Source: a bacterium
Lineage (GTDB): Bacteria; Bacillota; Clostridia; Christensenellales; Aristaeellaceae
Length of the DNA stretch: 41,256 bases
Direction: 5' to 3'
Assembly: GCA_963649405.1 (NCBI GenBank)
Contig: CAVJHY010000001.1
Location: 1 to 41,256, forward strand
Below the pieces are notes generated by a model that saw only the letters and a list, made by a program, of their open reading frames with translations, was not told where the DNA came from and did no database searches. A program made the translations under genes and the position numbers. Below are positions 12,809 through 26,301 of this stretch, one piece after another (positions within the stretch are counted from its first letter, which is position 1; the number at the start of each line of letters is the position of its first letter).

Positions 12809-13624
12809 TCAGTTTTTCTTCAACAGATTTTCCACCGCGCTGACCCACTCATGGTCGGGGTCATTGGAGCGGAAGAAGCCCTGATGCTCGCCCGCCATCA
12901 GCCACAGGAAATAGGTGTTGTAGCCGGGTGCGCCCACGGTGGTGTGATAGCCACGCGGGAATTCGACCAGCTCGTCCTGCTTCACGCGATACGCCTCGTC
13001 GATTTCGCCGTCGCTGGTGTACAGGCACTGCACGCCGAAGCCCTGCTGCGGGTCAAACAGGAAGTAGTAAATTTCCTCAAGGATTCCCTCGGAGGGCATA
13101 TTATCCACATCGTGCTTATGCGGCGGGAAACCGGCCCAGTTGCCGGGGGTGATGTACGCCTCGCCGATGGTCAGCTTCTTGGCATTCGTGCTGCCGTCCA
13201 CGATGAAGCTGGTGTCGCGTTCCCACGGCTTTGCGCCCAGACGCACCACGCGAACATCCGCCTGATGGATGGCTTGCGGCTCGGTGTCCACGGTGATGGG
13301 CGTTCCGCACACGGCGATTTTCACATTCCACGGGCTGTCAATTTTCACTGAGCAGTTGCGCGGCGCATAGAAGCATTCAGCCTTGGGGCTTTCAAACACA
13401 TTGCGGCGAACGCCCAAGGTGCCGTAGTCCTTGCCGTTGGCGGTGAAATTGGCCTTGCCGTTCAGAAGGACAAATGCGACCTCGCGGTCTTTCGTTTCAA
13501 AGGTGTAACTTTCGCCGTCCCCCAGCTCGATGATGCCGAATTCCAAGTCCTTCAGGCTGCATTTGCCGATTTCGCACAGCGGGGTATAGCCCTTTTTCGG
13601 GGTGTAAGTCTTTTTGAAATTCAT
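12809..13624 (-). CDS. iolB: 5-deoxy-glucuronate isomerase family protein (IolB-like cupin)
   Basis: GNWAGFPPHKHDVDNMPSEGILEEIYYFLFDPQQGFGVQCLYT...NDPDHEWV closely parallels B. subtilis IolB as I remember it (GNWSSYPPHKHDQDNLPEESFLEETYYHELDPGQGF...NDPAHEWI). Confidence 0.8.
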   Translation of the reverse strand: MNFKKTYTPKKGYTPLCEIGKCSLKDLEFGIIELGDGESYTFETKDREVAFVLLNGKANFTANGKDYGTLGVRRNVFESPKAECFYAPRNCSVKIDSPWNVKIAVCGTPITVDTEPQAIHQADVRVVRLGAKPWERDTSFIVDGSTNAKKLTIGEAYITPGNWAGFPPHKHDVDNMPSEGILEEIYYFLFDPQQGFGVQCLYTSDGEIDEAYRVKQDELVEFPRGYHTTVGAPGYNTYFLWLMAGEHQGFFRSNDPDHEWVSAVENLLKKN

Positions 13625-13627
13625 AAG

Positions 13628-14557
13628 TCATTTCTTCCTTTCCTTGATGTACTGTATCATCATGTCGATGGTTTCCTGCCAATCGGCAATGATTCCATAA
13701 TCCGAACAGGCGAAGATGGGCGCATTGCGCTCTTTGTTGACCGATACCACGGTTTTGGCGCTGCTCATGCCCACCGTGTGCTGGACAAAGCCGCTGATGC
13801 CAAAGCCGATGTACAGCTCCGGCCGGATGGTCACGCCCGTCTGCCCCACCTGATGGGCATAGGAGATATAGCCCGCGTCCACGGCGCTGCGGGTTGCGCC
13901 GACCGCGCCGCCCAGCAAATCCGCCAGTTCAAACAGCTTTTCAAAGCCCTTCTTGCTGCCGACACCCTTGCCGCCCGCGATGACAACCTTTGCATTTTGA
14001 AGTGACACGCCGCTTTCGACCGGCTCAAAGGCAAGCTGCTTCATGCGCTCCTGAAGAAACGGGAGGTCGACGGTCTTGCTTGCGCCGTTTCTGCCGCGGA
14101 CACGCTCCGGCAAGGGGAACACGCCGGGACGGACAGAGGCCATCTGCGGTCTTTTTATTTTGCAGAGGATGTCCGCCGTCAGGTTGTTGCCAAAGGCGGG
14201 GCGGGTCTGCAACAGCAAACCGTTTTGAATGCTCAATTCCGTGCAGTCCGCTGTCAAACCCGTATCGAGCCGTGCAGCGACCCACGCGGACAGGAAGCGC
14301 CCGCGCACCGTGGCGGGAAACAGCACAATATCTGCCTGAAGTATGGTAAGCGCCTCAGCAATGCGGTTGCCCTGTGCGCAATCGTCCGCGCAAAGTGCAA
14401 GCAGCTGCACCTCGTCCGCGCCACTTTCCAAGAGCAGAGCGCCGTTTTCATGCTCCGATAAGGCGATGATGAAGGCTTCCGGCGCGATTGTCCGTGCCTT
14501 GCCAATCAGCTCCAATGCGGGATTCGGCGTTGCTTCACAAAATACGACAATTTTCAC
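13628..14557 (-). CDS. etfA: Electron transfer flavoprotein alpha subunit (EtfA)
   Basis: C-terminal FAD-binding signature VGATRSAVDAGYISYAHQVGQTGVTIRPELYIGFGISGFVQH. I place the start at GTG 14557 (VKIVVF), a GTGA overlap with the etfB stop preceded by GGAAAGGGGG. The ORF-track 5' extension lies inside etfB. Confidence 0.9.
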   Translation of the reverse strand: MKIVVFCEATPNPALELIGKARTIAPEAFIIALSEHENGALLLESGADEVQLLALCADDCAQGNRIAEALTILQADIVLFPATVRGRFLSAWVAARLDTGLTADCTELSIQNGLLLQTRPAFGNNLTADILCKIKRPQMASVRPGVFPLPERVRGRNGASKTVDLPFLQERMKQLAFEPVESGVSLQNAKVVIAGGKGVGSKKGFEKLFELADLLGGAVGATRSAVDAGYISYAHQVGQTGVTIRPELYIGFGISGFVQHTVGMSSAKTVVSVNKERNAPIFACSDYGIIADWQETIDMMIQYIKERKK

Positions 14558-15327
14558 GGCAGCAGCCCCCTTTCCGTCAAGGCGGAAAGCACCTCGGCTG
14601 TGCTGATTTTTTTGCATGGCCGCACACACACGGGACGGCTGTCCACATGGATGACGCGAGTCGGTGAGGCTTTCAAACCGCACTGTGCGGCGGTGAGACC
14701 GATGTCAACGGGTGAAAACAATTGAATGTCTGCCTTTGCTGCTTTCTTTAAGCCGAGCAGTGTCGGCAGACGGAGGCGATAGCTCCATTCGCAGAAGGTG
14801 ACGACCGCAGGAAGCGACGTTTGCCAAGTGATTTTTCCTGTCTCCGTCAGTTGGACGGCGGTGAGACCGTTTTTTGCTTTATCCAAGGTTGTTGCATTGG
14901 CGATGCAGGGAACATCCAGCATAGAGGCCAGCATGGGGCCTACCTGCCCTGTTTCGCCGTCCACGGCGCGGCGGCCGCAGAGAATGACATCAAACCCGCC
15001 CAAGGCTTGGACGGAGGCCTTCAGGCATTTCGCCGTGACCAAGGTGTCCGCACCCGCAAAGGCAGGGTCTGTCAGTAAAACAGCCTTATCCGCACCGCGG
15101 GAAAGCGCTTCCCTGAGAAGGCTTTCGGCGCGTTTGGGTCCCATGGAAAGAACGGTGACTGTACCACCCCAAACATCCCGAAGCTGCAAGCCCTTTTCCA
15201 AGGCGCTCTCATCGGACGGATTCATCACCTGCGCGACAAAATCCCGCTGTAGGGTAAAATCGCTGGACAGCTTCACCTCGGTGGTATCCGGCACCTGCTT
15301 TAAGCATACCAGTATGTTCATGCGCAT
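14554..15327 (-). CDS. etfB: Electron transfer flavoprotein beta subunit (EtfB)
   Basis: MNILVCLKQVPDT N-terminus, CGRRAVDGETGQVGP, and GLKASPTRV. An alternative start is ATG 15321 (MNILV). Confidence 0.9.
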   Translation of the reverse strand: MRMNILVCLKQVPDTTEVKLSSDFTLQRDFVAQVMNPSDESALEKGLQLRDVWGGTVTVLSMGPKRAESLLREALSRGADKAVLLTDPAFAGADTLVTAKCLKASVQALGGFDVILCGRRAVDGETGQVGPMLASMLDVPCIANATTLDKAKNGLTAVQLTETGKITWQTSLPAVVTFCEWSYRLRLPTLLGLKKAAKADIQLFSPVDIGLTAAQCGLKASPTRVIHVDSRPVCVRPCKKISTAEVLSALTERGLLP

Positions 15328-15329
15328 TC

Positions 15330-16796
15330 CTACATTCTGTGATAGATGGGGGCAAGTGCCTTCTGAATGGCCTGATAGATGTCAAAATGCTCGTTATAGA
15401 AGGTCACGCCCTCCTTGTCAGGCAGGGTTTCGCCCGTCACGCGGACACAGCGTTTGACCGCATCGGCATGGCTTGCAAACACGCCCGTGGCAACACCGGC
15501 GAGCATGGCACTGCCGAGGCTGCTGTCCACATTTTCGACTGTTTTAAGCGGAATGTTCAACATATCCGCCAAAATCTGCCGCCACAAATCGCTCTTTGCG
15601 CCGCCTCCGATAGCGACAGCCTCCGTAGGTGCAATCTTCAGCTCCTTGAGGGTGGCAAAGCAGTCCTTCATGGAATAGGCAACGCCCTCCAGCACGGCGC
15701 GGTTAAAGTGCGCCTTCGTATGAGCGCCGACAGCGCCCACAAAGCTGGCGCGGAGCTTGTCATCCAGATACGGAGTAATTTCTCCCTGCAGATAGGGATG
15801 GAAATACAGGCCGTCGCAGCCGCGGGCAACGGAAGCCGCCGCCGCGCTCATTTCGCCGAAGCTGCCGCCGAAGGTGTCCCGATACCAACGGTTGCTGGCA
15901 GCGCAGCTCTTGGTGGCCGTGCCGGGATACCAAAGCTCGTCAATGACATGACGATAAGTGACAAGGCGCGGATCAACCACCGCATGGTCGGTAATCGGGC
16001 AGATGCGTCCCGCCGTGGCGAGCTTCACCGTGGCTTGACCGACAGCAATCGCACCGGCGGCATAGACCTCCATCACGGTGTCCGTCGCGCCGACAATGAC
16101 CACCGTGCCATCCGTCAGTCCCGTGTCCTCCTGCGCCTGTTTGGTCAGCTTGGAGAGCTTGGTCATCGGGTCAACGATGGGCGGCATGATGTCCTTATTC
16201 AAACCCGCCATGGCGCACAGTTTGTCCGACCACTCGTTCTTGCGGGCATCAAGCAGCAAAAAGCCCATTGCTTCAATGCTGTCCGTCACATAGTCGCCCG
16301 TCAGACGGAAACGCACATAGTCCTTGACAGCCATAACCTTGCGCGTTTTTTGAAGCGTTTCCGGCTCGTGACGCTTGAGCCAAATAAGCTGCGGCAGCGT
16401 CCACAGGCTGGAAACGCCGTTGTAGCACTCTTCCATCAGCTCATTGCCCAAATTGGCCTTCAGCGCGGCAGCTTCCTCGCTAGCGCGGCTGTCCGTCCAA
16501 TAGATGGCGCGGCGCACGGGCTTATCATCCTCGCCAAGCAAAACGGCGGTGTGCGTGGCAGCATCCAAAGCCAAGGCTGCGATGTCGCTTGCACTAACGC
16601 CCGATGTATGCAAAATTTCCCGCACATTGGAAACCAGCGCCTGATAGCTGTCCTCCGCGTCCTGCTCTGCCCAGCCGCTGTGCGGATAATAGGTCGGGTA
16701 TTCCTTTCCGGCCGTTGCGTAGACCTTGCCGTCCTCGCCCAAAAGCGTCGCCTTGGAGGAAGAGCCTCCAAAGTCCACGCCCAGCAAATATTTCAT
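15330..16796 (-). CDS. FGGY-family carbohydrate kinase (xylulokinase-like)
   Basis: MKYLLGVDFGGSSSKATLL...GWAEQDAEDSY matches the FGGY N-terminal signatures. I place the start at ATG 16796 (SD GAGGAAAGGG upstream). The ORF-track start at 16856 lies inside a hairpin. Confidence 0.85.
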   Translation of the reverse strand: MKYLLGVDFGGSSSKATLLGEDGKVYATAGKEYPTYYPHSGWAEQDAEDSYQALVSNVREILHTSGVSASDIAALALDAATHTAVLLGEDDKPVRRAIYWTDSRASEEAAALKANLGNELMEECYNGVSSLWTLPQLIWLKRHEPETLQKTRKVMAVKDYVRFRLTGDYVTDSIEAMGFLLLDARKNEWSDKLCAMAGLNKDIMPPIVDPMTKLSKLTKQAQEDTGLTDGTVVIVGATDTVMEVYAAGAIAVGQATVKLATAGRICPITDHAVVDPRLVTYRHVIDELWYPGTATKSCAASNRWYRDTFGGSFGEMSAAAASVARGCDGLYFHPYLQGEITPYLDDKLRASFVGAVGAHTKAHFNRAVLEGVAYSMKDCFATLKELKIAPTEAVAIGGGAKSDLWRQILADMLNIPLKTVENVDSSLGSAMLAGVATGVFASHADAVKRCVRVTGETLPDKEGVTFYNEHFDIYQAIQKALAPIYHRM

Positions 16797-16842
16797 TCTT
16801 TTTTGCCCTTTCCTCTTTTTTAGCAAAACCTTTGGGGAATAT

Positions 16843-17043
16843 ATGAAGGGGGTCACTACCCCTTCATGTCAATTCCGCAGTACCGCCTTTGCCGGTACGA
16901 GAAGCGGTTGGAATACCGCTTCCTATATCAATTTCTGACCGTAAAATGAGATGGCTCTGCCATTCATTTTACAAGAAATTGATGTCCAAATGAAAATCTG
17001 CTTTAGCTGACTTTCATTGATAGTGTGTCAAAAAATTTTGACA
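16843..17043 (-). promoter_or_regulatory. Multi-hairpin untranslated spacer between the Fe-S gene and the FGGY kinase gene
   Basis: Hairpins read directly: 16843-16867 (9 bp), 16880-16898 (6 bp), 16901-16922 (8 bp), 16941-16972 (14 bp with one bulge), and 16989-17018 (7 bp). There is also the palindrome TGTCAAAA-AA-TTTTGACA at 17026-17043. Confidence 0.6.
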
Positions 17044-17056
17044 TACTAATGGTAAA

Positions 17057-17088
17057 CGCGACGCGGGAACAAAACGCCCCGCGCCGCG
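17057..17088 (-). terminator. GC-rich hairpin just after the Fe-S gene; candidate internal terminator or attenuator
   Basis: The minus RNA reads CGCGGCGCGGG-loop-CCCGCGUCGCG followed by UUUACC. That is 11 bp including one G-U that would be an A-C mismatch on the plus strand. The U-tract is weak. Confidence 0.5.
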
Positions 17089-17100
17089 CTATCTTATCCT

Positions 17101-18183
17101 TTAGATGCGCTCCGCCAGCATGACGAACAAATCTTTATATTCGTAGCCTTCAGGAACGGTGGCGCTCAGTGCCTCGGTGCTTTGCGGGCAGGCGGCGACC
17201 ATGATTTTCGCATCCGTGCGCTTGCAATGCTCCCAGCGGCCTTCGGCGACCTTCGCACGAAGCTCCGGCAGATACTGACCGACCACGGCGCTGCCGCAGC
17301 ACTTCGCCAAGCGGCGATTCTGCCACATTTCGTGAATTTCGCAGCCCATCGCAGTCAGAATATCGCGGGCAGGCTGATGCTCGTCCAAGTCACGCGCCAG
17401 ACGGCTGCCGTCATGATAGGTGACGACCATCGGCTTCTTCTGCGGGCTGAGCTTGCCCTGCTTAATCAACTCATCGATAAACGCGGTCGCGGTGACGACT
17501 TCGGGCAGGTCAATGCCCCAGTCCTTATATTCATGGCGCATGAGTGCAGCATCATAGCTGTCCAGCACGATAACCTTCTTTGCGCCCGTTGCACGGATGG
17601 CTTCGCCAGCCTTGGCAGCCTGAGCGCGGACATCCTCCACAAAGCCCATCAAGTCGCCCAGAGCGCTGCCGGAAGCCGGCTCATTTTTGAGCGCAGCAAA
17701 CGGCACTTCGGCGGTCTTCAAAATGGTGAACAGGGCATTGGCCACGCAGGGCGTGGAATAGCGAGCCGTTGCGCCCAACCAAACCAGCGTATCGTCGCTT
17801 TCTGGGATACCGGCAAAATCCACCTTAGTTTCGGTTGCGCCGTAAATGTTGCCCGTCTCAACAACCTTGTCAATGACCTTCTGCACATAAGGGGGGACAA
17901 TGCCCTGCACATTGGCCTGCGTGCGGCCTTCGCGGATAAAAATCAGCGGGTCAAAGCCGGTCACGCAGTCGTTGGTGCAAGCGCCGCAGAGCATACATTC
18001 ATACATCGTCTTGGCGACATCCTTATCAAAGGGCATACCGCGCTCAATCATGCTGACCTGAAGACCCTTGGCACGGGGAGTATTGGTTTCCTTGCCGGTC
18101 ACAAGCTGCACAGGGCACAGGTGACGGCACATCCAGCAAAAGCGGCAGGCCTCCGCATTCTTTTTCGCTTTTTCGCTAAACAT
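17101..18183 (-). CDS. (Fe-S)-binding protein, GlpC/GlcF/HdrD-like (two 4Fe-4S motifs plus CCG domains)
   Basis: CRFCWMCRHLCP and CMLCGACTNDC cluster motifs, and a C-terminal KCCGS (CCG) motif. SD AGGAG lies in the 15-nt gap after the FAD gene. Confidence 0.85.
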   Translation of the reverse strand: MFSEKAKKNAEACRFCWMCRHLCPVQLVTGKETNTPRAKGLQVSMIERGMPFDKDVAKTMYECMLCGACTNDCVTGFDPLIFIREGRTQANVQGIVPPYVQKVIDKVVETGNIYGATETKVDFAGIPESDDTLVWLGATARYSTPCVANALFTILKTAEVPFAALKNEPASGSALGDLMGFVEDVRAQAAKAGEAIRATGAKKVIVLDSYDAALMRHEYKDWGIDLPEVVTATAFIDELIKQGKLSPQKKPMVVTYHDGSRLARDLDEHQPARDILTAMGCEIHEMWQNRRLAKCCGSAVVGQYLPELRAKVAEGRWEHCKRTDAKIMVAACPQSTEALSATVPEGYEYKDLFVMLAERI

Positions 18184-18198
18184 TTGTCTCTATCTCCT

Positions 18199-19629
18199 TT
18201 ACAGACCCAGCTTGTAGGGATTCATGATGCCATTGGGATCCAAGCTCTTTTTAAGACCCTGCATCACCTGCATGGCGGGACCGTACTGCTCCTTCATCAA
18301 GCGGGACAGCTTGAGGCCGATGCCGTGATGGTCGTTAATAACGCCGCCGTTTTCCATTGCTGCACGCACGCCCGCATTCCAAATCTTGTTGTGCAGACGC
18401 ATGGCCTCTTCGGGGTCTTGCGGAACATAGGCGGGGTCAACGATAAAGCGGGTGTAATTCATGCAGCCCCACTCATACCAGTGGCTGGAGTGAGAGATGT
18501 ACTTAACATAGGGGAACTGCTCGTTGATGACCTTCTTCATCGCCCAATAAATCTTTTCGATGTTGGCATAGGTCGCCACGGTGTCCATCGTGCCGAACAT
18601 CTGCGGGATGTCCATGATGTGACCGGGATAGAAGAAGGTGATGCGGTTCTCGTACCATTTTTCGCCGTACTCGCTGCCCAGATTCTGAGCGCCGTACTTG
18701 TCGGCAATCTCCTGTACGATTTCCATTTCGATATCGACAATCTTCTTCATGCCCTCGCAGGTCACGTTCATGAAGCAGCCCTTTTTCTCAAAGCCCAGAA
18801 TCTTCTTGATGATGGACACGGTTTCGGCCTCATCAAAGAAGCGGAGAATGGAGGGCTTCACCTTCTGCATGATGTCGCGGCCAGCCATGTAGCCGGAATG
18901 CATATCCGGGAACAGGAAGGCGATGTGCTGGCGGCTTTCCGGCTGCTCAAACAGCTTAAAGGTCGCTTTGGTGATAACGCCCAAAGTTCCCTCACTGCCG
19001 ATGAAGATTTCATTGAGGTCAGGACCGGCTGCGTGCTTCGGCACGGGCAGGGTGTTGATGATGTCGCCGTTCGGCAGAACGACTTCCATGCTGACGCACA
19101 TATCATCAATCTTGCCGTACTTGGTGGACATAATGCCGATGCCGCGATGACCTAGCGCGCCACCGATGGTGCCGCAGGTCAGGCAGGATGGGATGTGCTG
19201 GCAGGAATAGCCGCGCTCGTTGGCGTACCATTCGAGCTGCTGGAAAATCATGCCCGCTTCAGCAGTGATGGTGCGGCTCACCTCATCGATTTCAATCAGG
19301 TGATTCATGCGCTTCATATCCATCATGATGCCGCCGGCCATCGGCAGAGCGCCGCCCTGACTGCCGCTGCCGCCGCCCCAGATATTCACGGGGATTTTAT
19401 AGTAGTTTGCAATCTTGAGAATCTTGCTGACTTCGACGCTGCTGCCCGGACGCACGATGTAGTCCGGCATCGGAGGGGTCTGTCCGCGATCCTCCCACAT
19501 ACGGCTGATCCAGAAATAGTCCACGCCGTAGGTCGCACGGTCGCTGGGCGCGGTGGATACATTTTCCGTCCCCACAACGTCCTCAAGCTCCGTCAGAATC
19601 ATATTATTCATAAAAGCCTTGCGTTCCAT
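18199..19629 (-). CDS. FAD-binding oxidoreductase (FAD_binding_4 / VAO-GlcD superfamily)
   Basis: PDYIVRPGSSVEVSKILKIANYYKIPVNIWGGGSGSQGG is the typical FAD-PCMH domain, followed by a long FAD-oxidase C-domain. I place the start at ATG 19629 (MERKAF), 10 nt after GAGGAG. The ORF-track TTG at 19647 overlaps the upstream stop. Confidence 0.85.
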   Translation of the reverse strand: MERKAFMNNMILTELEDVVGTENVSTAPSDRATYGVDYFWISRMWEDRGQTPPMPDYIVRPGSSVEVSKILKIANYYKIPVNIWGGGSGSQGGALPMAGGIMMDMKRMNHLIEIDEVSRTITAEAGMIFQQLEWYANERGYSCQHIPSCLTCGTIGGALGHRGIGIMSTKYGKIDDMCVSMEVVLPNGDIINTLPVPKHAAGPDLNEIFIGSEGTLGVITKATFKLFEQPESRQHIAFLFPDMHSGYMAGRDIMQKVKPSILRFFDEAETVSIIKKILGFEKKGCFMNVTCEGMKKIVDIEMEIVQEIADKYGAQNLGSEYGEKWYENRITFFYPGHIMDIPQMFGTMDTVATYANIEKIYWAMKKVINEQFPYVKYISHSSHWYEWGCMNYTRFIVDPAYVPQDPEEAMRLHNKIWNAGVRAAMENGGVINDHHGIGLKLSRLMKEQYGPAMQVMQGLKKSLDPNGIMNPYKLGL

Positions 19630-19643: not shown

Positions 19644-20315
19644 TCAATAATGAATCTCGTAGTTGATGCCGTGCAGACCGACATACGCGCCCTTTTGCAC
19701 AACGGGCGCATTGTCCTCATGCGCGATGAGCCACTTGTCCTTTGCCCACAGAAGCCGGCCATCGCCGCCCTTGGGCTGACCGCCGTCCAGCGGCGTGTTC
19801 GTGCCTTTGGGCAGAACAACAATGCAGCGGAAGCCGTCATCGGACACTTGGCAGGGGCAAAAATGCAGGGTCGTTGCATAGACCTCAATGACGCTGCCCT
19901 TAGGAACATAGAAGGCCGTAACCTTCTTGGTGTCCAAATCAAAGCCTTCCATATCCTGCTGATGCGCAAGCAGCAGCACCATGTCGCTCACGGCGATATT
20001 ATGCTCGCTGGCACGGTGGTATTCCAAGCAGTTGAGCTTGCTGGAATGTCCCCAGCAGACACCAATTTGGCAGCTTCCCTCACCGCGCAAGATGGTTTGA
20101 ACAGCATGGAAATCCTCGGTGAGCGCCTCTAATTCCGGCATGGCGGGGACATATGCACTGCCCTCCTCCGGCATTTTGGCGGCCTGTTCGCAGACACTCA
20201 TCAGCTTTTCGGCAGGAAAATCAATCACTCTGCCAAAGGTGCGAAATTCGGGGTCGTTCACGGAATAAATCGGGACATCAGGATTTAAGGCACGCAGCTT
20301 TTCCAACATATTCAT
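19644..20315 (-). CDS. DUF4867-like protein (predicted cupin / ureidoglycolate-lyase-like fold), function unknown
   Basis: About 223 aa with no catalytic motif I can name. The family name is from memory of similar proteins in sugar clusters. I place the start at ATG 20315, 10 nt after AAGGAGG. Confidence 0.55.
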   Translation of the reverse strand: MNMLEKLRALNPDVPIYSVNDPEFRTFGRVIDFPAEKLMSVCEQAAKMPEEGSAYVPAMPELEALTEDFHAVQTILRGEGSCQIGVCWGHSSKLNCLEYHRASEHNIAVSDMVLLLAHQQDMEGFDLDTKKVTAFYVPKGSVIEVYATTLHFCPCQVSDDGFRCIVVLPKGTNTPLDGGQPKGGDGRLLWAKDKWLIAHEDNAPVVQKGAYVGLHGINYEIHY

Positions 20316-20330
20316 CGATTTCAAGCCTCC

Positions 20331-21179
20331 TTACAGGATGGTAATGAAGTGATGGCGCTGGACAGATTGTCCCACCTCTAAGCGGATGCAGCCCTTCTTA
20401 TGCTCAATCTGCATATCACTGTCCAAGGTGTCCGGCGCATTGAGCCACGGCTCAATGCAGATGTATTCCGCGCCCGGCTTCATCCAGAACATCAGCACAT
20501 CGTGTTCGGGGAAATCCACCCGCACCTTGCGGTCATGCTTTTTGCTCACCAAGGTCACGCCGCGGCTCTTTAGGTCGGTAAATACCAGCGCATCCACGGC
20601 AAAATATTTTTCTTTCAAGGGGAAAACGCGGGTGTTCTCCGCCATCACCTGCCCCACGGGGTCAATTAAATTGCCGTGAAGCTCATGGTTAAGCAGGGTT
20701 TCTTCCTCATCAAAGACGATTTCGTAATCTTCAAGCCTGCCGGGGGTTGCATAGCCCTCGTGAGCGCCCATGCCGAAATAGAAGGTGCGGCTGTCCTTAT
20801 TGTCCACCTGCCATGTCACGATGACGCGGTTGTCCTCCAGCCGATAGTTGACATGGAGCGCATAGTCAAACGGAAAGCCCGGCGCTTTTTCCTGCATGAG
20901 ATAAGTTGCACTTACATCGTCCGTCTTTTCAAGCTGCCACTCAATCTGGCGCACATAGCCATGCTTTGGCATTTCATAACGCTGACCGTTCAAATAATAG
21001 CAGTCATCCCTGAGTCCGCCCGCAATGGGGAACAGAATCGGGGCGCGACCCTTCCAAAATTGTGGGTCGCCCTGCCACAGCCGCTCAACGCCGTTTGCAT
21101 CCTTGATGGACTGCATTTCTGCGCCAAGAGAGGAAATCGTCACTGTCAGCTTGTCGTTATGCAGTGTCGTCAGGCTCAC
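20331..21179 (-). CDS. Aldose 1-epimerase (galactose mutarotase-like) family protein
   Basis: LWQGDPQFWKGRAPILFPIAGGL...MPKHGY and a C-terminal IEPW are typical of LacX/YihR-type mutarotases. I place the start at GTG 21179, a GTGA overlap with the kinase stop preceded by GGAAAGGGG. ATG 21215 is an alternative. Confidence 0.8.
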   Translation of the reverse strand: MSLTTLHNDKLTVTISSLGAEMQSIKDANGVERLWQGDPQFWKGRAPILFPIAGGLRDDCYYLNGQRYEMPKHGYVRQIEWQLEKTDDVSATYLMQEKAPGFPFDYALHVNYRLEDNRVIVTWQVDNKDSRTFYFGMGAHEGYATPGRLEDYEIVFDEEETLLNHELHGNLIDPVGQVMAENTRVFPLKEKYFAVDALVFTDLKSRGVTLVSKKHDRKVRVDFPEHDVLMFWMKPGAEYICIEPWLNAPDTLDSDMQIEHKKGCIRLEVGQSVQRHHFITIL

Positions 21180-22105
21180 AGCGAAACGCCCCTTTCCTTT
21201 AGGAATGCGCGGCATTCTTCGTCTGTCGCCATCGCATAGCGAGCGCCCAAGCGGGTGCATTTGATGGCCGCCGCAGCGCTGGCGTACTTGCAGGCATCAT
21301 CGTTATTCAAACCCTTGATTTTCGCAGCCGCAAACGCGCCATGGAAGGTATCGCCGCAGCCGTTGGTGTCCTTTGCGTCCACCTTATAGCTGGCATAGCG
21401 GCGCAGACCCTTTTCGTCCAGCAAAATGCCGCCGCGCACGCCCTGCGTCAGCACCAGCAGCTCGGGATGATAGGTGTCATACAGCTTCTTTGCCGCATCT
21501 TCGGCGTTCTTTTCGCCGGTCATCTTGAGCGCAAATTCCTCGGAGGGAATCAGATAATCCACATAAGGCATGAGGTTTTCCACGCCCGAATAAGTGCCGC
21601 CTGCGTCATGGCTGACCTTCACGCCATGCTCGCGGCAGTATTTCGCGGCGGCGATGGCGGCATTCAGCATATGCCCGTCCAAATGCAGCACCTTTGCATG
21701 GCTCAGCACATCAAAGTCAATGTCCGCTTCCGTCGGCTGCGGAACAGTGCCTCTGTTCCAAATGCAGGTGCGGCTGGTGCTCGCTTGGCTGAGCAGTACC
21801 ACGGAATGGAAGCTGACGGCATCCGCCACGCGGCGCACACAGGTCGTGTCAATATCCCAATGAGCGAAGTCGTCCATCATGAAACGGCCGAAGGGGTCAT
21901 CACCGATGGTTCCCATATAGGCAGCAGAAACGCCCAGCTTGCGGGCAGCAACCAACGCCGTGGCGCAGGGGCCGCCCCCCTGCACCTTGGTTTCAATGCC
22001 TTCCCGCTTGGTGTCCTCGGTCGGAAAACGGTCAACCACCATTAAGGTGTCATACACGGTCGAGCCGATGCCCACCATTTCAGGCCATGTCGTCCGATTA
22101 AGCAT
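21176..22105 (-). CDS. PfkB-family sugar kinase (YihV-like subgroup)
   Basis: The N-terminal GGGPCATALVAARKLG and C-terminal DTNGCGDTFHGAF...AIKCTRLGAR resemble E. coli YihV as I remember it. I place the start at ATG 22105 (SD GGAGGA), overlapping the aldolase 3' end by 8 nt. Confidence 0.85.
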   Translation of the reverse strand: MLNRTTWPEMVGIGSTVYDTLMVVDRFPTEDTKREGIETKVQGGGPCATALVAARKLGVSAAYMGTIGDDPFGRFMMDDFAHWDIDTTCVRRVADAVSFHSVVLLSQASTSRTCIWNRGTVPQPTEADIDFDVLSHAKVLHLDGHMLNAAIAAAKYCREHGVKVSHDAGGTYSGVENLMPYVDYLIPSEEFALKMTGEKNAEDAAKKLYDTYHPELLVLTQGVRGGILLDEKGLRRYASYKVDAKDTNGCGDTFHGAFAAAKIKGLNNDDACKYASAAAAIKCTRLGARYAMATDEECRAFLKERGVSL

Positions 22106-22928
22106 TGGTGTCCTCCGCGCCCAGCAGCGCAATCTTTTCAAGCGCAAAGCGCTTCACCGCCTGCGTCGGCTCTTTCATGAACAAGTCAACAGCGATGGTC
22201 TTGGGGTCAACGCTGTGGAAGGCGTTCAGGAAGGAGCAGCAGACATCCGTGCCAAAGTTAATCTTGCTGATACCAGCCTTGATAGCAGCCTGAATCTGCT
22301 CATCAGGAACGCCACTGCCGCCGTGCAGCACAAGGTGTGCCTTGGTCGCCGCATGAATTTCTGCAATGCGGTCAATCGCCAAAACGGGCGCTTGCTTATA
22401 GTGACCGTGTGCCGTGCCGACCATGATGGCCAGCGCATCCACGCCAGTTTCGTCCACAAAGCGGACAGCCTCATCCACCTTGGTATATTCAGTGCTGACA
22501 CCCTCAGCAGCCACGCCGATGTGACCCAGCTCGCCTTCGACATCCACGCCGACTTCGTGGGCAAAATGCACCACATTTTTCAAAACCTTGATATTTTCCT
22601 CAAAGGGCAGGGTGCTGGCATCGCGCATGACGCTGGTGCAGCCCCAACGGAGCGCGCGGCAGACTGCCTCATCACTTGCGCCGTGATCAAGATGGAAGGC
22701 GAGCTTCACCTTGGACTTTTCAGCAGCCTTCAGGATGGAGGGAACGAGGAACTCGGCCTCATAGTTGGTGAACAGGCGGCTGTACATCTGCAGAATCACG
22801 CTGGCGTTCGCTTCCTCAGCGGCAAAAATGATGCCCAGCGCGGTCTCAGCGTTGTACACATTAAAAGCAGGGATGGCGCACTTGCGCTCCTCGGCAACCT
22901 TCAGCATATCTTTCATTCCGGTCAGCAT
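22098..22928 (-). CDS. Class II ketose-bisphosphate aldolase (FbaA/GatY/KbaY/IolJ family)
   Basis: AIPAFNVYN, HLDHGAS, GELGHIG, GTAHGHYK and LVLHGGSG motifs. Length 276 aa. Confidence 0.9.
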   Translation of the reverse strand: MLTGMKDMLKVAEERKCAIPAFNVYNAETALGIIFAAEEANASVILQMYSRLFTNYEAEFLVPSILKAAEKSKVKLAFHLDHGASDEAVCRALRWGCTSVMRDASTLPFEENIKVLKNVVHFAHEVGVDVEGELGHIGVAAEGVSTEYTKVDEAVRFVDETGVDALAIMVGTAHGHYKQAPVLAIDRIAEIHAATKAHLVLHGGSGVPDEQIQAAIKAGISKINFGTDVCCSFLNAFHSVDPKTIAVDLFMKEPTQAVKRFALEKIALLGAEDTNA

Positions 22929-22999: not shown

Positions 23000-24400
23000 T
23001 TATTCGTTCACTGTATCGAGCTTCAGCTCAGGCACGAACTTGATGAACTCGCGCAGCTCTTCGGTGACATCGCCCTCGATTTCGGCCATATGGTGGATGT
23101 ACGGGCCTTCAATCAGCTTGCGCTCCCACGCAGAGAGGTTCTTAAACTGCGCCCAAAGGTAAGTGCCGAAGGTGTACGGACCATCGGTCGTCTTGCAGGT
23201 GCCGGCCAAGAGGCTGTAATTGCCGTTGTCTTGGTCGAAGCGAGACACGGTGTATTCGCCGTCCTTGACTTGGAACCACTGGCGCATATTCACATTCTTG
23301 CAGGGGCTGCCCTCTTTCTTGAGGCTGTAAGCGAACGGCCCGCAGTGCCACAGAAGCTCGGCATTCTTGTTTTCGGGATGGCGCACGGTGAATTCGCCGA
23401 AGAACGGAATCTTCTTGCCCATCGTCGCGCAGGACAGCAGTGCCATCGAGATTGCGCCGTGCAGATCGCTCTCGCAGGAGATGATATAGCCCATATCAGC
23501 CAAAATGCTGTATGCAGTGCAGGGCATCGCGCCGACACCAAGCTGCATGGCCGTCCAACACTCGGCAGACACAGCCTGTACATTATAGGCTTCAAACAGC
23601 CACTTATACAGCAGCACGAAGGCATAGACCTTCTTGAGCAGCGGCGGGGTCAAATCGTCCATTTCATAACGGGACAGAAGCAGCTTTGCGCCCTCTTCCA
23701 GCTCCGCATCGTTCTCCGCCAGAATCTTGTTGTATTTGTCGATGATGACGGCCATGTTGACAGGAATGATCTGCAGACCGAATTTTTCCATCAGCTCGCC
23801 CTCATTAAAGATGACGGAGCAGAAGGGCTTGGGACGCATACCGATCTGCGCAATGCGCATTCCACGGAAATTCTTGACCATGCACGCCACATGGGTGAAT
23901 TTCTCAAAGCCAGTCTTGAAGATGTCGCTCTCCACGGGGCTGGTTTCGATGTAGCTGAACGGCACATGGAGGCGCTGAAGCTGACGGCTTACACCGAACA
24001 GACCGCACTGGCTGTCAGTATAGCGGGTGCCATCGGGCAGGAAGCTGTCGTCAATGGGTGCCCAAATGCAAACGGGCTTGCCCACACCACGAGCCACTGT
24101 TCCGGCGATTTCCTCATTGCCGAAGTTGCAGTTGATAATCAGCACTGCATCGACCTTTTCCGCGTTAAAGCGCTCAATGACCTTTTCCGCGTCTGCATCG
24201 CAGTACATGACATCAACGGGGTTGATGCCCTTTAAGTCCACAAAGGTGACATTTTCGGAAGCGAAATGCTCCTCAATGTACTGAACAATCTGATGACCGC
24301 GCTCTTCCGCCTTTTCCCAGTTGAAAATGCCGGGACGCGGGGTAACATCACGACGCATGGGAGCCAGACCAATCTTGACCTGATAATTCAGCATAGCCAT
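23000..24400 (-). CDS. L-fucose/L-arabinose isomerase family protein (short, ~465-aa form)
   Basis: The N-terminal KIGLAPMRRD...INCNFGNEE...DSQCGLFG pattern fits the short FucI-like family. I place the start at ATG 24400 (MAMLNYQ), 7 nt after AAGAAGG. The ORF-track start is GTG 24418. Confidence 0.7.
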   Translation of the reverse strand: MAMLNYQVKIGLAPMRRDVTPRPGIFNWEKAEERGHQIVQYIEEHFASENVTFVDLKGINPVDVMYCDADAEKVIERFNAEKVDAVLIINCNFGNEEIAGTVARGVGKPVCIWAPIDDSFLPDGTRYTDSQCGLFGVSRQLQRLHVPFSYIETSPVESDIFKTGFEKFTHVACMVKNFRGMRIAQIGMRPKPFCSVIFNEGELMEKFGLQIIPVNMAVIIDKYNKILAENDAELEEGAKLLLSRYEMDDLTPPLLKKVYAFVLLYKWLFEAYNVQAVSAECWTAMQLGVGAMPCTAYSILADMGYIISCESDLHGAISMALLSCATMGKKIPFFGEFTVRHPENKNAELLWHCGPFAYSLKKEGSPCKNVNMRQWFQVKDGEYTVSRFDQDNGNYSLLAGTCKTTDGPYTFGTYLWAQFKNLSAWERKLIEGPYIHHMAEIEGDVTEELREFIKFVPELKLDTVNE

Positions 24401-24439: not shown

Positions 24440-24468
24440 ATTATAAAAAACTCTGAATCGCTAATCAA
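24440..24468 (-). promoter_or_regulatory. Sigma-A-type promoter of the sugar catabolic island
   Basis: On the minus strand: TTGATT, 17 nt, TATAAT, about 40 nt upstream of the isomerase start. The inverted repeat GAATCG-N13-CGATTC (24455-24479) overlaps the -35. Confidence 0.65.
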
Positions 24469-24683: not shown

Positions 24684-24724
24684 AAAAAATGAAATCGAGA
24701 ATTGTCCGAAAGCGAGGGACAGGC

Positions 24725-26245: not shown

Positions 26246-26261
26246 CCGATATACGCAATTT

Positions 26262-26290: not shown

Positions 26291-26301
26291 ATACGCTTTG
26301 A

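Follow-up and report, generated by a model that had tools for sequence, protein, structure and literature searches.

Why does a sugar operon in an uncultured Clostridia bacterium of the gut contain a redox unit made up of a sugar kinase, a flavoenzyme, an Fe-S protein and an Etf? We analyzed this operon in a stretch of 41,256 nucleotides (the window). An earlier note on this DNA proposed an Etf-linked oxidation within the sugar operon, and the proposal held in part: the adjacency is not fortuitous, the system is not LctBCD, and the Etf is of the bifurcating type, but the GlcD/LctD-like label given to the flavoenzyme did not hold. Open reading frames and profile matches confirmed the order and families that the note had given for all 11 minus-strand genes (Table 1), and also its gaps (15 nt FAD/Fe-S, 2 nt FGGY/EtfB, 3 nt EtfA/IolB-like) and the GTGA overlap of EtfB and EtfA. 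The 15-nt gap is AGGAGATAGAGACAA, with AGGAG inside. Divergent regulator and uptake genes also flank the operon in relatives L001, L032, and L081. The ABC substrate-binding protein gave only generic carbohydrate matches.

Table 1. Features of the operon and of the divergent block (positions in the window).
Feature	Position	Strand	Remarks
KduI/IolB-family cupin aldose-ketose isomerase	12809..13624	-	PF04962 231 bits; 3-nt gap after EtfA
EtfA, short form, 309 aa	13628..14557	-	start inside GTGA overlap with EtfB stop
EtfB, two-FAD (bifurcating) type by sequence	14554..15327	-	2-nt gap after FGGY
FGGY-family (XylB-like) sugar or polyol kinase	15330..16796	-	PF00370 + PF02782; real start is ATG of MKYLLGVDFGG
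Structured intergenic spacer, 304 nt	16797..17100	-	between Fe-S and FGGY genes
Soluble EtfD/HdrD-like Fe-S protein	17101..18183	-	two CxxCxxCxxxC(P) [4Fe-4S] motifs + degenerate CCG half
AGPS/YgcU-like VAO-fold flavoenzyme, presumed catalytic subunit	18199..19629	-	FAD_binding_4 + FAD-oxidase_C; 476 aa from ATG
DUF4867 cupin protein	19644..20324	-	PF16161 239.7 bits; accessory, 17/34 loci
Aldose 1-epimerase (mutarotase)	20331..21260	-	PF01263 89.8 bits; start uncertain; accessory, 13/34 loci
PfkB-family sugar kinase	21176..22147	-	PF00294 152 bits; ATG near 22105 is probable true start
Class II (metal-dependent) ketose-phosphate aldolase	22098..22928	-	PF01116 283 bits; TIGR00167 232 bits
Fucose-isomerase-like aldose-ketose isomerase	23000..24394	-	start codon uncertain, 24394-24418; accessory, 16/34 complete loci
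Promoter-like site TTGATT-17-TATAAT, upstream of operon	24440..24468	-	putative; consensus scan only
Divergent promoter-like site for regulator/transporter genes	24655-24683	+	putative; consensus scan only
AraC-type response regulator	24689-26245	+	ORF; divergent block 24689..31812
CUT1 ABC substrate-binding protein	26676-27986	+	ORF; divergent block 24689..31812
Two ABC permeases	28094-29898	+	ORFs; divergent block 24689..31812
Histidine kinase	29914-31812	+	ORF; divergent block 24689..31812

The closest relatives of the flavoenzyme, judged by sequence, are alkyl-DHAP synthase (AGPS) and E. coli YgcU. Its best solved relative was AGPS (2uuu, 162 bits, full length) versus 129.5 bits over the N-terminal half only for LctD, and the cap domain aligned end to end with AGPS only. 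YgcU is 31% identical (212 bits) and has the same motifs, and the JGI name on homologues is "alkyldihydroxyacetonephosphate synthase". The motif GGVINDHHGIG resembles SHHHGVG of AGPS and does not match the (G/A)EHG(I/V)G of D-LDH, glycolate oxidase, and D2HGDH. In place of the metal-site motifs of D-2-hydroxyacid dehydrogenases (His/His/Glu; HxGDGNxH, EHG), the flavoenzyme family invariantly has HSSHWY and HHG. Relative L013 has a separate lctB-lctC-lctD-larA cassette inside the locus beside the module, and the flavoenzyme is 24% identical to that canonical LctD. Because of this low identity and the missing metal-binding motifs, we rejected an LctD/GlcD orthologue, and the GlcD/LctD-type label gives way to AGPS/YgcU-like. 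The low identity and the linkage with sugar genes also remove the concern that the flavoenzyme and Etf genes are plain LctBCD orthologues.

The flavoenzyme has AGPS-like active-site residues. The positions of the AGPS catalytic residues Arg352 and Tyr508 (PMC3509576) correspond to residues that are invariant among 77 homologues of the flavoenzyme. The conserved residues are the Arg in SILRFFD, Tyr388, and NDHHG; AGPS Arg447 is not conserved, which counts against the explanation that we favor below. AGPS is a redox-neutral enzyme, so these residues are no proof of a dehydrogenase. Foldseek on the low-confidence structure model (pLDDT 68) separated AGPS (TMq 0.72) only weakly from LDHD (0.65).

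The Fe-S protein is best described, from its predicted structure, as a membrane-less EtfD/HdrD-like module with a degenerate CCG part. The motifs reported earlier (CRFCWMCRHLCP, CMLCGACTNDC, and KCCGS) are present. Among 72 homologues, the eight ferredoxin-type cysteines are kept in 99-100% and the CCG cysteines in 35-44% only. The top Foldseek match of the model (pLDDT 88) was M. smegmatis EtfD (9ojn, TMq 0.80, E 1e-15), and no TM-like segment was found in the protein. The earlier GlpC/HdrD-like call needs correcting: the two cubane motifs are conserved but the CCG cysteines are not, and the fold is EtfD-like. EtfD takes electrons from ETF (PMC13083937).

EtfB and EtfA are, by their sequences, of the two-FAD (bifurcating) type. 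They scored 132-213 bits with solved bifurcating Etfs versus 65-126 bits with AMP-type ETFs, and the possibility of an AMP-binding, non-bifurcating EtfB was not borne out. HMMER aligned ILCGRRAVDGETGQVGP of EtfB to ILCGRQAIDGDTAQVGP of Acidaminococcus Etf (4kpu_B), so the two-FAD motif given in the earlier note was correct; it is kept in all locus homologues. EtfA is without an N-terminal ferredoxin domain.

FGGY kinases are paired with AGPS-like flavoenzymes well beyond the Clostridia. The kinase in the window scored 362.6 bits with XylB (TIGR01312, below the cut-off of 380) and only 155 bits with GlpK, and among solved proteins it is closest to E. coli xylulokinase (218 bits). In 8/8 plasmid or chromid contexts inspected (Proteobacteria, Bacilli, Actinobacteria), FGGY adjoins an AGPS-like flavoenzyme, and E. 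coli has ygcU and ygcE in one gene cluster; two of these nine pairings additionally include an antiterminator that responds to glycerol-3-phosphate. The orders are xylB-FAD in Mesorhizobium (kinase 40% and FAD orthologue 44.6% identical to the window proteins), GlpP-type antiterminator-FGGY-FAD in Enterococcus gilvus, FAD-xylulokinase-ABC-glycerol dehydrogenase in Labrenzia, Paracoccus, and Shinella, SDR-FAD-FGGY-MFS in Priestia and B. thuringiensis, and FAD-hypothetical-GlpK-GlpD in Microbacterium. E. coli YgcP is a PF04309 G3P_antiterm protein (210.6 bits). These pairings independently support the earlier idea of an FGGY kinase followed by an FAD-dependent polyol-phosphate dehydrogenase.

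The region is a conserved, uncharacterized catabolic module that recurs in hundreds of gut species. Relatives of the flavoenzyme were confirmed in at least 592 stretches (GTDB contigs, one genome per species), which corresponds to no fewer than about 590 genomes at species level. In the 34 complete loci with the flavoenzyme (at least 9 kb of flank on both sides), we found FeS in 34, FGGY and EtfB each in 33, EtfA, IolB-like, and aldolase each in 32, and PfkB in 31. This is the co-occurrence that the earlier note had proposed to test by a neighborhood survey. The gene set recurs in shuffled order in dozens of species-level genomes, with at least seven orders among the complete loci, and four blocks stay intact despite the shuffling: FAD-FeS (74/74), FGGY-EtfB (48/53), EtfB-EtfA (53/53), and aldolase-PfkB (59/59). 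A few species have a split transketolase, or a 2-oxoacid-dehydrogenase complex, in place of kinase and aldolase. We found no paper on the flavoenzyme clade in the literature and no assayed enzyme of the clade.

The spacer between the Fe-S and FGGY genes is mostly strain-specific. The structured spacer of about 300 nt described earlier is indeed 304 nt and strongly folded (-122 kcal/mol versus -75 +/- 5 for shuffled sequences; z = -8.8). A terminator-like GC hairpin immediately follows the Fe-S stop codon, and the spacer also contains the palindrome TGTCAAAATTTTTTGACA and more hairpins; no Rfam family matched it. However, in L001 and L032 (98%-identical relatives) the spacer measures 98 nt and forms a single terminator-like hairpin, and what lies beyond the first hairpin is not kept in either. 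In other loci this junction holds inserted genes: LarA (603.7 bits, cut-off 460), malic enzyme, and, in three relatives, Ldh_2.

The aldolase passed the ketose-bisphosphate aldolase cut-off (TIGR00167, 232 versus 215.6 bits) and is closest among solved proteins to E. coli YdjI (174.7 bits). PfkB passed no NCBIfam equivalog; among solved proteins it matched sulfofructose kinase YihV best (118.7 bits), above ribokinases and ketohexokinase. The nearest solved relatives of both (YdjI; YihV, ketohexokinase) act on ketose 1-phosphates or at ketose C1, in line with the explanation that we favor below. The fucose-isomerase-like protein had no Pfam match and no solved relative by sequence; its only NCBIfam match was the sulfoquinovose isomerase SftI (132 bits, cut-off 700). 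The IolB-like protein passed the iolB equivalog (TIGR04378, 214.5 versus 205 bits). The DUF4867 family has been linked to genes of the fucose-isomerase family and to FGGY genes (PMC11968277). Against that explanation, several neighbors point to sugar-acid or 2-hydroxyacid chemistry: the TRAP transporter of Pyramidobacter, the membership of the IolB-like protein in the IolB/KduI family, the YdjI-like aldolase, and the LarA, Ldh_2, and malic-enzyme insertions.

We favor, with a probability of about 0.45, the explanation that the core is a kinase-coupled, Etf-linked flavoenzyme complex acting on a phosphorylated sugar derivative, which the flavoenzyme would oxidize, with electrons passing via the Fe-S protein to Etf. 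We infer the substrate class, the oxidation site, the order of the steps, and the direction of electron flow. The ABC system would import a sugar or sugar alcohol, and the XylB-like kinase would phosphorylate its terminal CH2OH, so that one end of the product would resemble glycerol-3-phosphate or DHAP. The flavoenzyme would oxidize that end, most likely CHOH-CH2OP to CO-CH2OP, with Tyr388 as the base. The EtfD-like partner would relay the two electrons via its two [4Fe-4S] clusters to the alpha-FAD of EtfAB, and they would most likely be merged with reduced ferredoxin to reduce NAD+ (confurcation, as in LctBCD), because the Etf is of the two-FAD type and these Clostridia presumably lack quinones. 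The two isomerases (IolB-like and fucose-isomerase-like), PfkB, and the class II aldolase would take the same carbon skeleton to DHAP and a second triose or aldehyde. If so, a phosphorylated sugar or sugar alcohol would be oxidized without oxygen.

Several observations count against this explanation. Etf genes are absent nearby in L018, L030, L034, and L081, and FGGY in L017 and L081. In EtfD and FixABCX, electrons run from Etf to the Fe-S partner, opposite to the direction proposed. Known polyol-phosphate dehydrogenases work readily with NAD(P), and only a G3P/DHAP-like couple (about -190 mV) would explain why an Etf is needed.

It is possible, though unlikely, that the complex is a D-2-hydroxyacid dehydrogenase for a sugar acid, glycerate, or a lactate-type compound, doing the job of LctBCD or GlcDEF/Dld-II without being orthologous; IolB, PfkB, and aldolase would in that case handle an acid sugar, as in IolB/IolC/IolJ or YdjH/YdjI. 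Glycolate oxidase and two-subunit D-LDHs likewise combine an FAD_binding_4 + FAD-oxidase_C flavoprotein with an HdrD-like Fe-S partner, and 2-hydroxyacid/2-oxoacid couples are the classic case of Etf confurcation. The iolB match and the closeness of the aldolase to YdjI would fit, as would the inserted LarA, Ldh_2, and malic enzyme and the Pyramidobacter locus (L028), where a TRAP transporter lies upstream and EtfA is followed by an E2-E3-E1 2-oxoacid dehydrogenase complex and lipoate ligase. However, the metal-site motifs are invariantly replaced, and both the GlpP-type regulators and the FGGY kinase as universal partner argue for compounds that are phosphorylated and G3P-like. L013 has its complete lctBCD-larA cassette besides the module and at the insertion-prone junction, so LarA is probably linked to that cassette.

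We consider a reversed, FixABCX-like flow somewhat less probable still. NADH would reduce the bifurcating Etf, one path leading through the Fe-S protein and flavoenzyme to a high-potential sugar-derived acceptor (enone, diketone, or DHAP-like ketone) and the other reducing ferredoxin, conserving energy. Such flow would require a dehydratase or other maker of the acceptor, but the module has no such conserved gene, and the potentials of ordinary sugar ketone/alcohol couples lie too low for bifurcation. The composition does mirror FixABCX, which consists of a two-FAD Etf, a 2x[4Fe-4S] protein, and an FAD enzyme, and the closest fold to the Fe-S protein is that of EtfD, which accepts electrons from ETF. 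Clostridial bifurcating Etfs mostly run NADH-oxidizing (Bcd, CarCDE), and these are the best-scoring relatives of EtfB and EtfA. In E. coli, however, the homologous flavoenzyme sits with Etf and ETF-quinone oxidoreductase, implying that the flavoenzyme is an electron donor.

Redox-neutral, AGPS-type carbanion chemistry is improbable. The aldolase would release a C3 aldehyde, from which IolB and FGGY would make the substrate, X-CH2-CO-CH2-OP; OH could, for example, take the place of sulfonate or another leaving group to give DHAP. Fe-S and Etf would merely keep the flavin oxidized, and a 6-substituted sugar would be broken down by the upstream genes in a sulfo-EMP-like pathway. This would account for the conserved counterparts of AGPS Arg352, Tyr508, and the His loop, the PfkB and isomerase matches, the sulfoglycolysis counterparts of DUF4867, aldose epimerase, class II aldolase, and the transketolase+RpiB variants, and the inserted Ldh_2, the family to which sulfolactate dehydrogenase belongs. 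Nevertheless, the SftI score is far below its cut-off, no substrate-binding protein match was named as a sulfoquinovose or SQ-glycerol binder, and GH31 sulfoquinovosidase, sulfonate/sulfite exporter, and sulfite reductase were not seen in the window or the scanned ORFs of other loci. Retention of Etf in 32-33 of the 34 loci is also hard to explain for a redox-neutral enzyme. Finally, the terminator-like hairpin, long spacer, and unrelated insertions between FeS and FGGY could suggest that Etf and flavoenzyme serve an unrelated process (lactate or acyl-CoA oxidation) inside a sugar operon, but such fortuitous adjacency is contradicted by co-occurrence in 31-34 of the 34 complete loci despite the shuffled orders and by the FGGY-flavoenzyme pairing across phyla; nor was any acyl-CoA dehydrogenase seen in the loci.

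The Fe-S protein model resembles the soluble portion of EtfD, a mycobacterial ETF acceptor. The earlier note knew of no characterized pathway of this composition; the E. coli ygc cluster, however, is a precedent, though itself uncharacterized.

The flavoprotein, Fe-S and Etf genes lie in a run of eleven minus-strand genes that extends from 24.4 kb to 12.8 kb of the window. The junctions described in the earlier note were all exact: a 15-nt gap with AGGAG between the flavoprotein and Fe-S genes, a 2-nt gap between the FGGY kinase gene and etfB, a GTGA overlap of etfB and etfA, and a 3-nt gap before the isomerase gene. Also present are its three cysteine motifs and the segment ILCGRRAVDGETGQVGP that it named in EtfB, and its observation as a whole was confirmed.

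Genes of the operon and of the divergent unit
Feature	Position	Strand	Remark
Fucose-isomerase-like protein	23000-24394	minus	without Pfam match; sole NCBIfam match sulfoquinovose isomerase SftI (132 bits, cut-off 700)
Class II ketose-phosphate aldolase	22098-22928	minus	
PfkB kinase	21176-22147	minus	
Aldose 1-epimerase	20331-21260	minus	
DUF4867	19644-20324	minus	
FAD_binding_4/FAD-oxidase_C flavoprotein	18199-19629	minus	476 aa
Fe-S protein	17101-18183	minus	
FGGY kinase	15330-16796	minus	
EtfB	14554-15327	minus	
EtfA	13628-14557	minus	309 aa, starts MKIVVFCEA
KduI/IolB-family isomerase	12809-13624	minus	iolB equivalog, 214.5 bits against a cut-off of 205
AraC-type response regulator, CUT1 ABC transporter and histidine kinase	24689-31812	plus	divergent unit

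The association of the flavoprotein with the other genes was conserved in related loci. A scan of the flavoprotein against GTDB, with one genome per species, gave at least 592 confirmed stretches, and the best 80 of these were 63-98% identical. The carriers among the best 80 were nearly all uncultured gut and rumen Clostridia (Christensenellales, Oscillospiraceae, Acutalibacteraceae, Acetatifactor, and Eisenbergiella, plus one Pyramidobacter); some Lachnospiraceae were also among the groups carrying the module. We mapped the window proteins onto the related loci by tblastn and counted adjacency by gene order; distance-based counts were unreliable for weak HSPs. The flavoprotein gene was followed by the Fe-S gene in 74 of 74 loci, etfB was followed by etfA in 53 of 53, and the aldolase gene by pfkB in 59 of 59. 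The kinase gene preceded etfB in 48 of 53 loci, and in 8 further loci the Fe-S gene led directly to etfB. Thirty-four loci had at least 9 kb on both sides, and these contained genes for the Fe-S protein (34), FGGY kinase (33), EtfB (33), EtfA (32), IolB (32), aldolase (32), and PfkB (31), and the accessory genes for DUF4867 (17), the fucose-isomerase-like protein (16), and the epimerase (13). The blocks flavoprotein-FeS, FGGY-EtfB-EtfA, aldolase-PfkB, and IolB were found in at least seven different orders, and identity of the Etf subunits across loci went down to approximately 30%. Because the linkage survives both rearrangement and divergence, a common function is strongly evidenced. This is the neighborhood survey that the earlier note had named as a check, and it indicates that co-occurrence is conserved and that the adjacency is not fortuitous.

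Parts of the module were exchanged in some loci. The aldolase and PfkB were replaced in four loci (L030, L043, L045, L047) by a split transketolase, with or without an RpiB-like isomerase, and in Pyramidobacter by an E2-E3-E1 2-oxoacid-dehydrogenase complex with its own lipoate ligase, adjoining a TRAP transporter. In this Pyramidobacter sp. variant, which lacks both aldolase and PfkB (L028, 1465-21031), genes for an AP_endonuc_2 protein, two IolB-like proteins, the TRAP transporter (DctQMP), a VOC protein, and the lipoate ligase are upstream, and those for E2, E3, and a fused E1 of the 2-oxoacid (or acetoin-type) dehydrogenase complex are downstream of FAD-FeS-FGGY-EtfBA. Five loci without EtfBA (L034, 16647-17873, and four others) encode a 408-aa PF12831 'FAD dependent oxidoreductase' after the FGGY kinase; this protein may be an alternative electron outlet where EtfBA is missing.

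Other genes adjoined the operon in subsets of the loci. A divergent pair encoding ThuA and a GFO/IDH/MocA oxidoreductase, families associated with 3-keto-sugar formation, is beside the operon in several loci (L081, 3147-5047; L006, 3039-4885; L013, 4007-5844). L081 also has two AP_endonuc_2 genes after iolB, and FGGY and Etf genes are absent nearby. In the window, genes for a ROK regulator, a NagA-like deacetylase, and two NagB-like proteins (glucosamine-6-P isomerase family) are on the minus strand at 36934-41114, 12 kb from the operon; ROK/NagA/NagB-like genes are directly upstream of the operon in L002 (903-5093), and NagA-like and NagB-like genes adjoin the module in about 10 further loci. 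A link of the module to amino sugars through these neighbors is possible.

The flavoenzyme is similar to alkyl-DHAP synthase (AGPS) and E. coli YgcU, and not GlcD/LctD-like; the earlier note had called it a VAO/GlcD-type flavoenzyme. Its best solved relative by sequence was the Dictyostelium AGPS (162 bits, residues 45-470); LctD scored 129.5 bits, over the N-terminal FAD domain only. When the cap half was searched alone, AGPS was the only protein that aligned end to end. The window sequence GGVINDHHGIG aligned to GGSLSHHHGVG of AGPS, a position at which D-LDH, glycolate oxidase, and D2HGDH have (G/A)EHG(I/V)G, and ISHSSHWYEWGCMNY aligned to AHISHTYTNGVCLY of AGPS. Both ISHSSHWYEWG and NDHHGIG were invariant in 77 homologues. 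A canonical LctD that is encoded in one of the related loci (L013) contains FGHAGDGNLH and GEHGIG and is 24% identical to the window flavoenzyme. The earlier note had held that its proposal would fail if the flavoenzyme and Etf genes were plain orthologues of the LctBCD system and occurred elsewhere without sugar genes; in the flavoenzyme, the metal-site motifs are absent, and the protein is not an LctD orthologue. The closest named bacterial relative that we found was YgcU, with 31% identity, 212 bits, and the same motifs. Several homologues are named 'alkyldihydroxyacetonephosphate synthase' by JGI, and NCBI uses 'FAD-binding oxidoreductase'.

Two of three catalytic residues of AGPS have conserved equivalents in the flavoenzyme. 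Arg352, Tyr508, and Arg447 of AGPS are catalytically important, and Tyr508 is the base that takes the C1 proton of the DHAP moiety (PMC3509576). In our alignment, Arg352 corresponds to the Arg of SILRFFD and Tyr508 to Tyr388 (SEQRES offset 3), and these two residues and NDHHG do not vary among the 77 homologues. Arg447, which lies in an alignment gap, is not conserved. The alignment starts at residue 132 of AGPS and residue 45 of the window protein, which has 476 aa compared with 584-658 aa for AGPS. Since the flavoenzyme lacks the approximately 130-residue N-terminal extension of AGPS, we conclude that ether-lipid synthesis is not its function. In Foldseek, a model of the flavoenzyme placed AGPS (TMq about 0.72) slightly above LDHD/LctD (0.65), a ranking that we use as supporting evidence only because confidence in the model was low (pLDDT 68).

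The Etf is of the two-FAD, bifurcating type. EtfB scored 164.5, 152.5, 149.9, 146.9, and 132.4 bits against the bifurcating Etfs 4kpu, 5ol2, 6fah, 7koe, and 7qh2, respectively, and at most 78.5 bits against AMP-type ETFs. The corresponding scores of EtfA were 148-213 bits and at most 126 bits. In EtfB, the segment GRQAIDGDTAQVG replaces the AMP-site sequence, HMMER aligned ILCGRRAVDGETGQVGP to ILCGRQAIDGDTAQVGP of the Acidaminococcus Etf, and all EtfBs of the related loci keep a G(R/K)(R/Q)xxDG(D/E)T(A/G)Q segment. Scores and segment agree with the earlier note, in which EtfB resembled the two-FAD proteins and not the AMP-binding ones. By these sequence measures EtfBA is classified as a group 2 Etf, although some group 2 Etfs do not bifurcate in vivo. 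EtfA belongs to the short type and lacks the Cys-rich N-terminus and ferredoxin domain of LctC and CarE; LctC of L013, for comparison, has 400 aa and contains CNGCGTC...CKTCGMC. The separate Fe-S protein may supply the function of the missing ferredoxin domain.

The Fe-S protein is a membrane-less EtfD/HdrD-like module. The top PDB match of its model (pLDDT 88, pTM 0.89) in Foldseek was the soluble region of Mycobacterium smegmatis EtfD (9ojn; E 1.1e-15, TMq 0.80), followed by LutA and HdrB. It contains no hydrophobic (membrane) segment (maximum KD19 1.32), and it matched GlpC over residues 4-108 only (40.9 bits against a cut-off of 278). EtfD passes electrons from ETF through four Fe-S clusters and heme b to menaquinone, and FadF and DgcB, which are related to it, are likewise regarded as probable ETF partners (PMC13083937). 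Because the partner of the flavoenzyme belongs to an ETF-interacting family, the flavoprotein and Fe-S genes are functionally tied to EtfBA.

The cluster motifs of the Fe-S protein were unequally conserved. The eight cysteines of the two CxxCxxCxxxC motifs were 99-100% conserved. Among the homologues, Cys295/296 of the CCG motif were found in 35-44% and Cys332 in 35%; the first CCG domain has no cysteines, and the second keeps CCG and one Cys only in the subclade of the window protein. Of the cysteine motifs stressed in the earlier note, then, all are present in the window, and the C-terminal CCG is not a family trait; we rejected it as a functional signature. In a Mesorhizobium sp. B2-1-8 plasmid (L083), the gene after the flavoprotein orthologue (13461-14585, annotated as hypothetical) encodes a protein homologous to the Fe-S subunit (22% identity, E 2e-6) with all cluster cysteines replaced. 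Lacking any cluster cysteine, the partner subunit seems to be retained as a scaffold in this aerobe. With the neighborhood conserved, and LctD orthology and an AMP-binding Etf set aside, the core of the earlier interpretation, a proposed Etf-linked oxidation within a sugar operon, survives its own refuting conditions, with the enzyme classes refined to AGPS/YgcU-like, EtfD-like, and bifurcating-type Etf.

A kinase of the FGGY family accompanied the flavoprotein in other phyla. The window kinase resembles XylB (362.6 bits, cut-off 380) and not GlpK (TIGR01311; 155 bits, cut-off 590), and its best solved relative is E. coli xylulokinase. A search of annotated plasmids and chromids for the flavoprotein gave 81 records, and in all 8 contexts that we opened, an FGGY kinase gene was beside the flavoprotein gene, often overlapping it. 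The Mesorhizobium order is xylB-FAD-X, with a kinase 40% and a flavoprotein 44.6% identical to the window proteins; X is the Fe-S homologue described above, all of whose cysteines have been lost. The order in Enterococcus gilvus is glycerol dehydrogenase, a G3P-responsive antiterminator, FGGY, and FAD; in Labrenzia, Paracoccus, and Shinella, it is LacI, FAD, xylulokinase, a CUT1 ABC transporter, and glycerol dehydrogenase; in Priestia and B. thuringiensis, SDR, FAD, FGGY, and MFS; and in Microbacterium, FAD, a hypothetical protein, GlpK, and GlpD.

The uncharacterised ygc cluster of E. coli K-12 (NC_000913.3, 2892657-2903374) seems to be an aerobic or facultative relative of the module found in Clostridia. 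It is laid out as ygcN-ygcO-ygcP, ygcQ-ygcR-ygcS-ygcU-ygcW, and yqcE-ygcE, and encodes the AGPS-like YgcU, the FGGY kinase YgcE, an Etf (YgcQR), an ETF-quinone oxidoreductase and ferredoxin (YgcNO), YgcP, an SDR, and two MFS transporters. YgcP is a PF04309 glycerol-3-phosphate-responsive antiterminator (210.6 bits). Since polyol dehydrogenases, sugar transporters, and two G3P-type antiterminators recur in these contexts, the kinase product would be a G3P-like sugar or polyol phosphate and the probable substrate of the flavoenzyme. We found no function for the ygc genes in the literature searched, and nothing relevant on Etf with an FGGY kinase, AGPS with Etf, or polyols with Etf.

Beyond the family assignments, the linkage, and the conserved residues, we infer the following mechanism. 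The FGGY kinase would make a CHOH-CH2OP (or CO-CH2OP) end, which the AGPS-like flavoenzyme would oxidise with Tyr388 as the base. Electrons would pass through the two [4Fe-4S] clusters to Etf, and the outlet would be NAD+ reduction helped by reduced ferredoxin, as in LctBCD. Given a two-FAD Etf in anaerobes that we assume to be quinone-free, ferredoxin-assisted NAD+ reduction is the natural outlet; the G3P/DHAP-type couple is at approximately -190 mV, which would justify an Etf arrangement. The isomerases, PfkB, and aldolase would convert the skeleton to DHAP and a second fragment, and the transketolase or 2-oxoacid-dehydrogenase complex of the variant loci would be alternative cleavage devices. 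Among solved proteins, PfkB is closest to YihV and ketohexokinase, both ketose 1-kinases, and the aldolase to YdjI, a ketose-1-phosphate aldolase. We give a probability of roughly one in three to the reading that these genes encode a new family of sugar-phosphate flavoenzymes with AGPS-type chemistry on a DHAP- or G3P-like head from a dedicated FGGY kinase, that YgcU/YgcE are aerobic cousins, and that in hundreds of strict-anaerobe gut and rumen Clostridia the enzyme is linked to a bifurcating-type Etf by an EtfD-like subunit that has no membrane domain.

The junction between the Fe-S and kinase genes is a hot spot for insertions. One locus (L013, 12579-17277) has a complete canonical lctB-lctC-lctD-larA lactate cassette at this junction, three (L003, L012, L014; about 12.7-14.0 kb) have larA alone, L002 (12709-15024) has Ldh_2 and malic enzyme, L005 (12861-14051) has Ldh_2, and L006 has an insertion with a putative Ldh_2. 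All of these inserts concern lactate, malate, or pyruvate. In the window, the junction is a 304-nt spacer that is very strongly structured (z = -8.8). No Rfam family matched anywhere in the window, and the spacer is therefore none of the known riboswitches or leaders. Approximately 200 nt of it, within 16797-17047, consists of consecutive stable hairpins, including the palindrome TGTCAAAATTTTTTGACA. Two relatives that are 98% identical (L001, L032) lack the extra hairpins and have a 98-nt spacer with one terminator-like hairpin, and we found no second copy of the hairpin stretch elsewhere in the window and none in the 80 related loci. A conserved regulatory RNA of the module was rejected on the grounds of this absence from all 80; the extra hairpins could represent a minor insertion particular to this strain, or a regulatory leader.

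It is possible that the substrate is instead a sugar acid or 2-hydroxyacid. The kinships of the isomerase to IolB/KduI and of the aldolase to YdjI, the TRAP transporter, and the neighboring LarA, Ldh_2, and malic-enzyme genes are in keeping with such a substrate. LarA beside the Fe-S gene at first suggested a 2-hydroxyacid, but in L013 larA forms part of an entire canonical lctBCD-larA cassette at the insertion-prone junction, and we treat these inserted genes as weak, indirect evidence only. Two other possibilities concern the direction and kind of chemistry: a reversed, FixABCX-like flow, in which NADH-reduced Etf would drive a reduction with ferredoxin co-reduced, and a redox-neutral AGPS-type reaction, for example on a sulfonated C3 fragment. 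A role in a sulfoquinovose pathway, to which the YihV, SftI, and DUF4867 matches and the transketolase variants might point, has a low probability: there were no genes for GH31, sulfonate, sulfite, or SLA enzymes or an exporter among the scanned neighbors, the SftI match was at 132 bits against 700 and that of PfkB to YihV only 118.7 bits, and the substrate-binding protein matched only generic carbohydrate binders, none of them named a sulfoquinovose binder. A search by sequence found no solved relative of the fucose-isomerase-like protein. None of erythritol/threitol, hexitols, uronates, aldonates, and 6-deoxyhexoses could be assigned as the substrate; each leaves at least one conserved gene without a role.

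If the reading as a new family of sugar-phosphate flavoenzymes is true, the module would represent a new class of ferredoxin/NAD-coupled, energy-linked step in carbohydrate catabolism. To our knowledge, few partners of Etf bifurcation or confurcation are known: acyl-CoA dehydrogenases, caffeyl-CoA reductase, LctD, and FixCX. A partner in a sugar pathway, from another branch of the VAO superfamily, would widen this list to mainstream carbohydrate fermentation. Several hundred species of little-studied Clostridia from gut and rumen carry the module, which makes a common compound from the diet or the host the likely substrate. The reading also gives a testable hypothesis for E. coli ygcU, ygcE, and ygcQR, for bacterial 'alkyl-DHAP synthase' annotations, and for the largest DUF4867 gene-neighborhood class.

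Compared with known systems, the module combines features of several. It shares with the ygc cluster an FGGY kinase, Etf alpha and beta subunits, sugar transporters, and a flavoprotein that matches over its full length with the same Arg, HSSHxY, and HHHG motifs. The ygc cluster additionally encodes the ETF-quinone oxidoreductase with ferredoxin, YgcP, and the SDR, and it lacks an EtfD-like Fe-S protein, IolB, PfkB, and an aldolase; between ygc and the window, the kinase and the Etf subunits share only 23-29% identity. LctBCD of Acetobacterium woodii (7qh2) is likewise a VAO-fold flavoprotein dehydrogenase with a two-FAD EtfAB in an anaerobe, and by analogy is a likely model for a donor near -190 mV that reduces NAD+ with the help of ferredoxin. 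In contrast to LctD, the window flavoenzyme lacks the His/His/Glu metal site (HxGDGNxH ... EHGxG), the window EtfA lacks the ferredoxin domain of LctC, and the module has a separate Fe-S subunit and a kinase. The two systems coexist in L013, where a real lctBCD-larA cassette is found with the module.

AGPS/ADPS (2uuu, 4bby), which acts on a DHAP derivative, is the closest solved protein to the flavoenzyme by sequence, including the cap domain, and, with the low-confidence model, by fold; the equivalents of Arg352, Tyr508, and the His loop are kept, with HH invariant. Unlike AGPS, the window protein has no N-terminal extension with gating helix and C16 lipid tunnel. AGPS itself catalyses a redox-neutral reaction on lipids and works without an Fe-S or Etf partner. 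The Fe-S protein, like mycobacterial EtfD (Rv0338c family; 9ojn) and HdrD/GlpC/DgcB-type proteins, has two cubane [4Fe-4S] motifs followed by CCG-type domains, but it lacks the membrane domain and heme of EtfD, and the cysteines for two noncubane or linear clusters in the CCG domains are not kept in its family.

The order of events proposed here, phosphorylation by an FGGY kinase and then oxidation of the carbon adjacent to CH2OP by a flavoprotein with a GlpC-like Fe-S subunit, is that of GlpK/GlpABC and Brucella EryA/EryB; GlpP-type regulators accompany cousins of the module. The flavoprotein of the window is VAO/AGPS-like (FAD_binding_4/FAD-oxidase_C), whereas GlpA, GlpD, and EryB belong to the DAO/GlpD-like family; its kinase is XylB-like and far below the GlpK cut-off, and the proposed outlet is Etf and not quinone. 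The trio of IolB-family isomerase, PfkB kinase, and class II aldolase resembles IolB/IolC/IolJ and YdjH/YdjI, with an aldolase closest to YdjI among solved relatives. Of the IolB and IolC equivalogs only IolB was passed, PfkB scoring 97.6 bits against the IolC cut-off of 300. The window contains none of iolG, iolE, iolD, and iolA, and GFO and AP_endonuc_2 genes are found in only some loci. The module is widespread and uncharacterised, and is a new variant within the Etf-coupled flavoenzyme systems.
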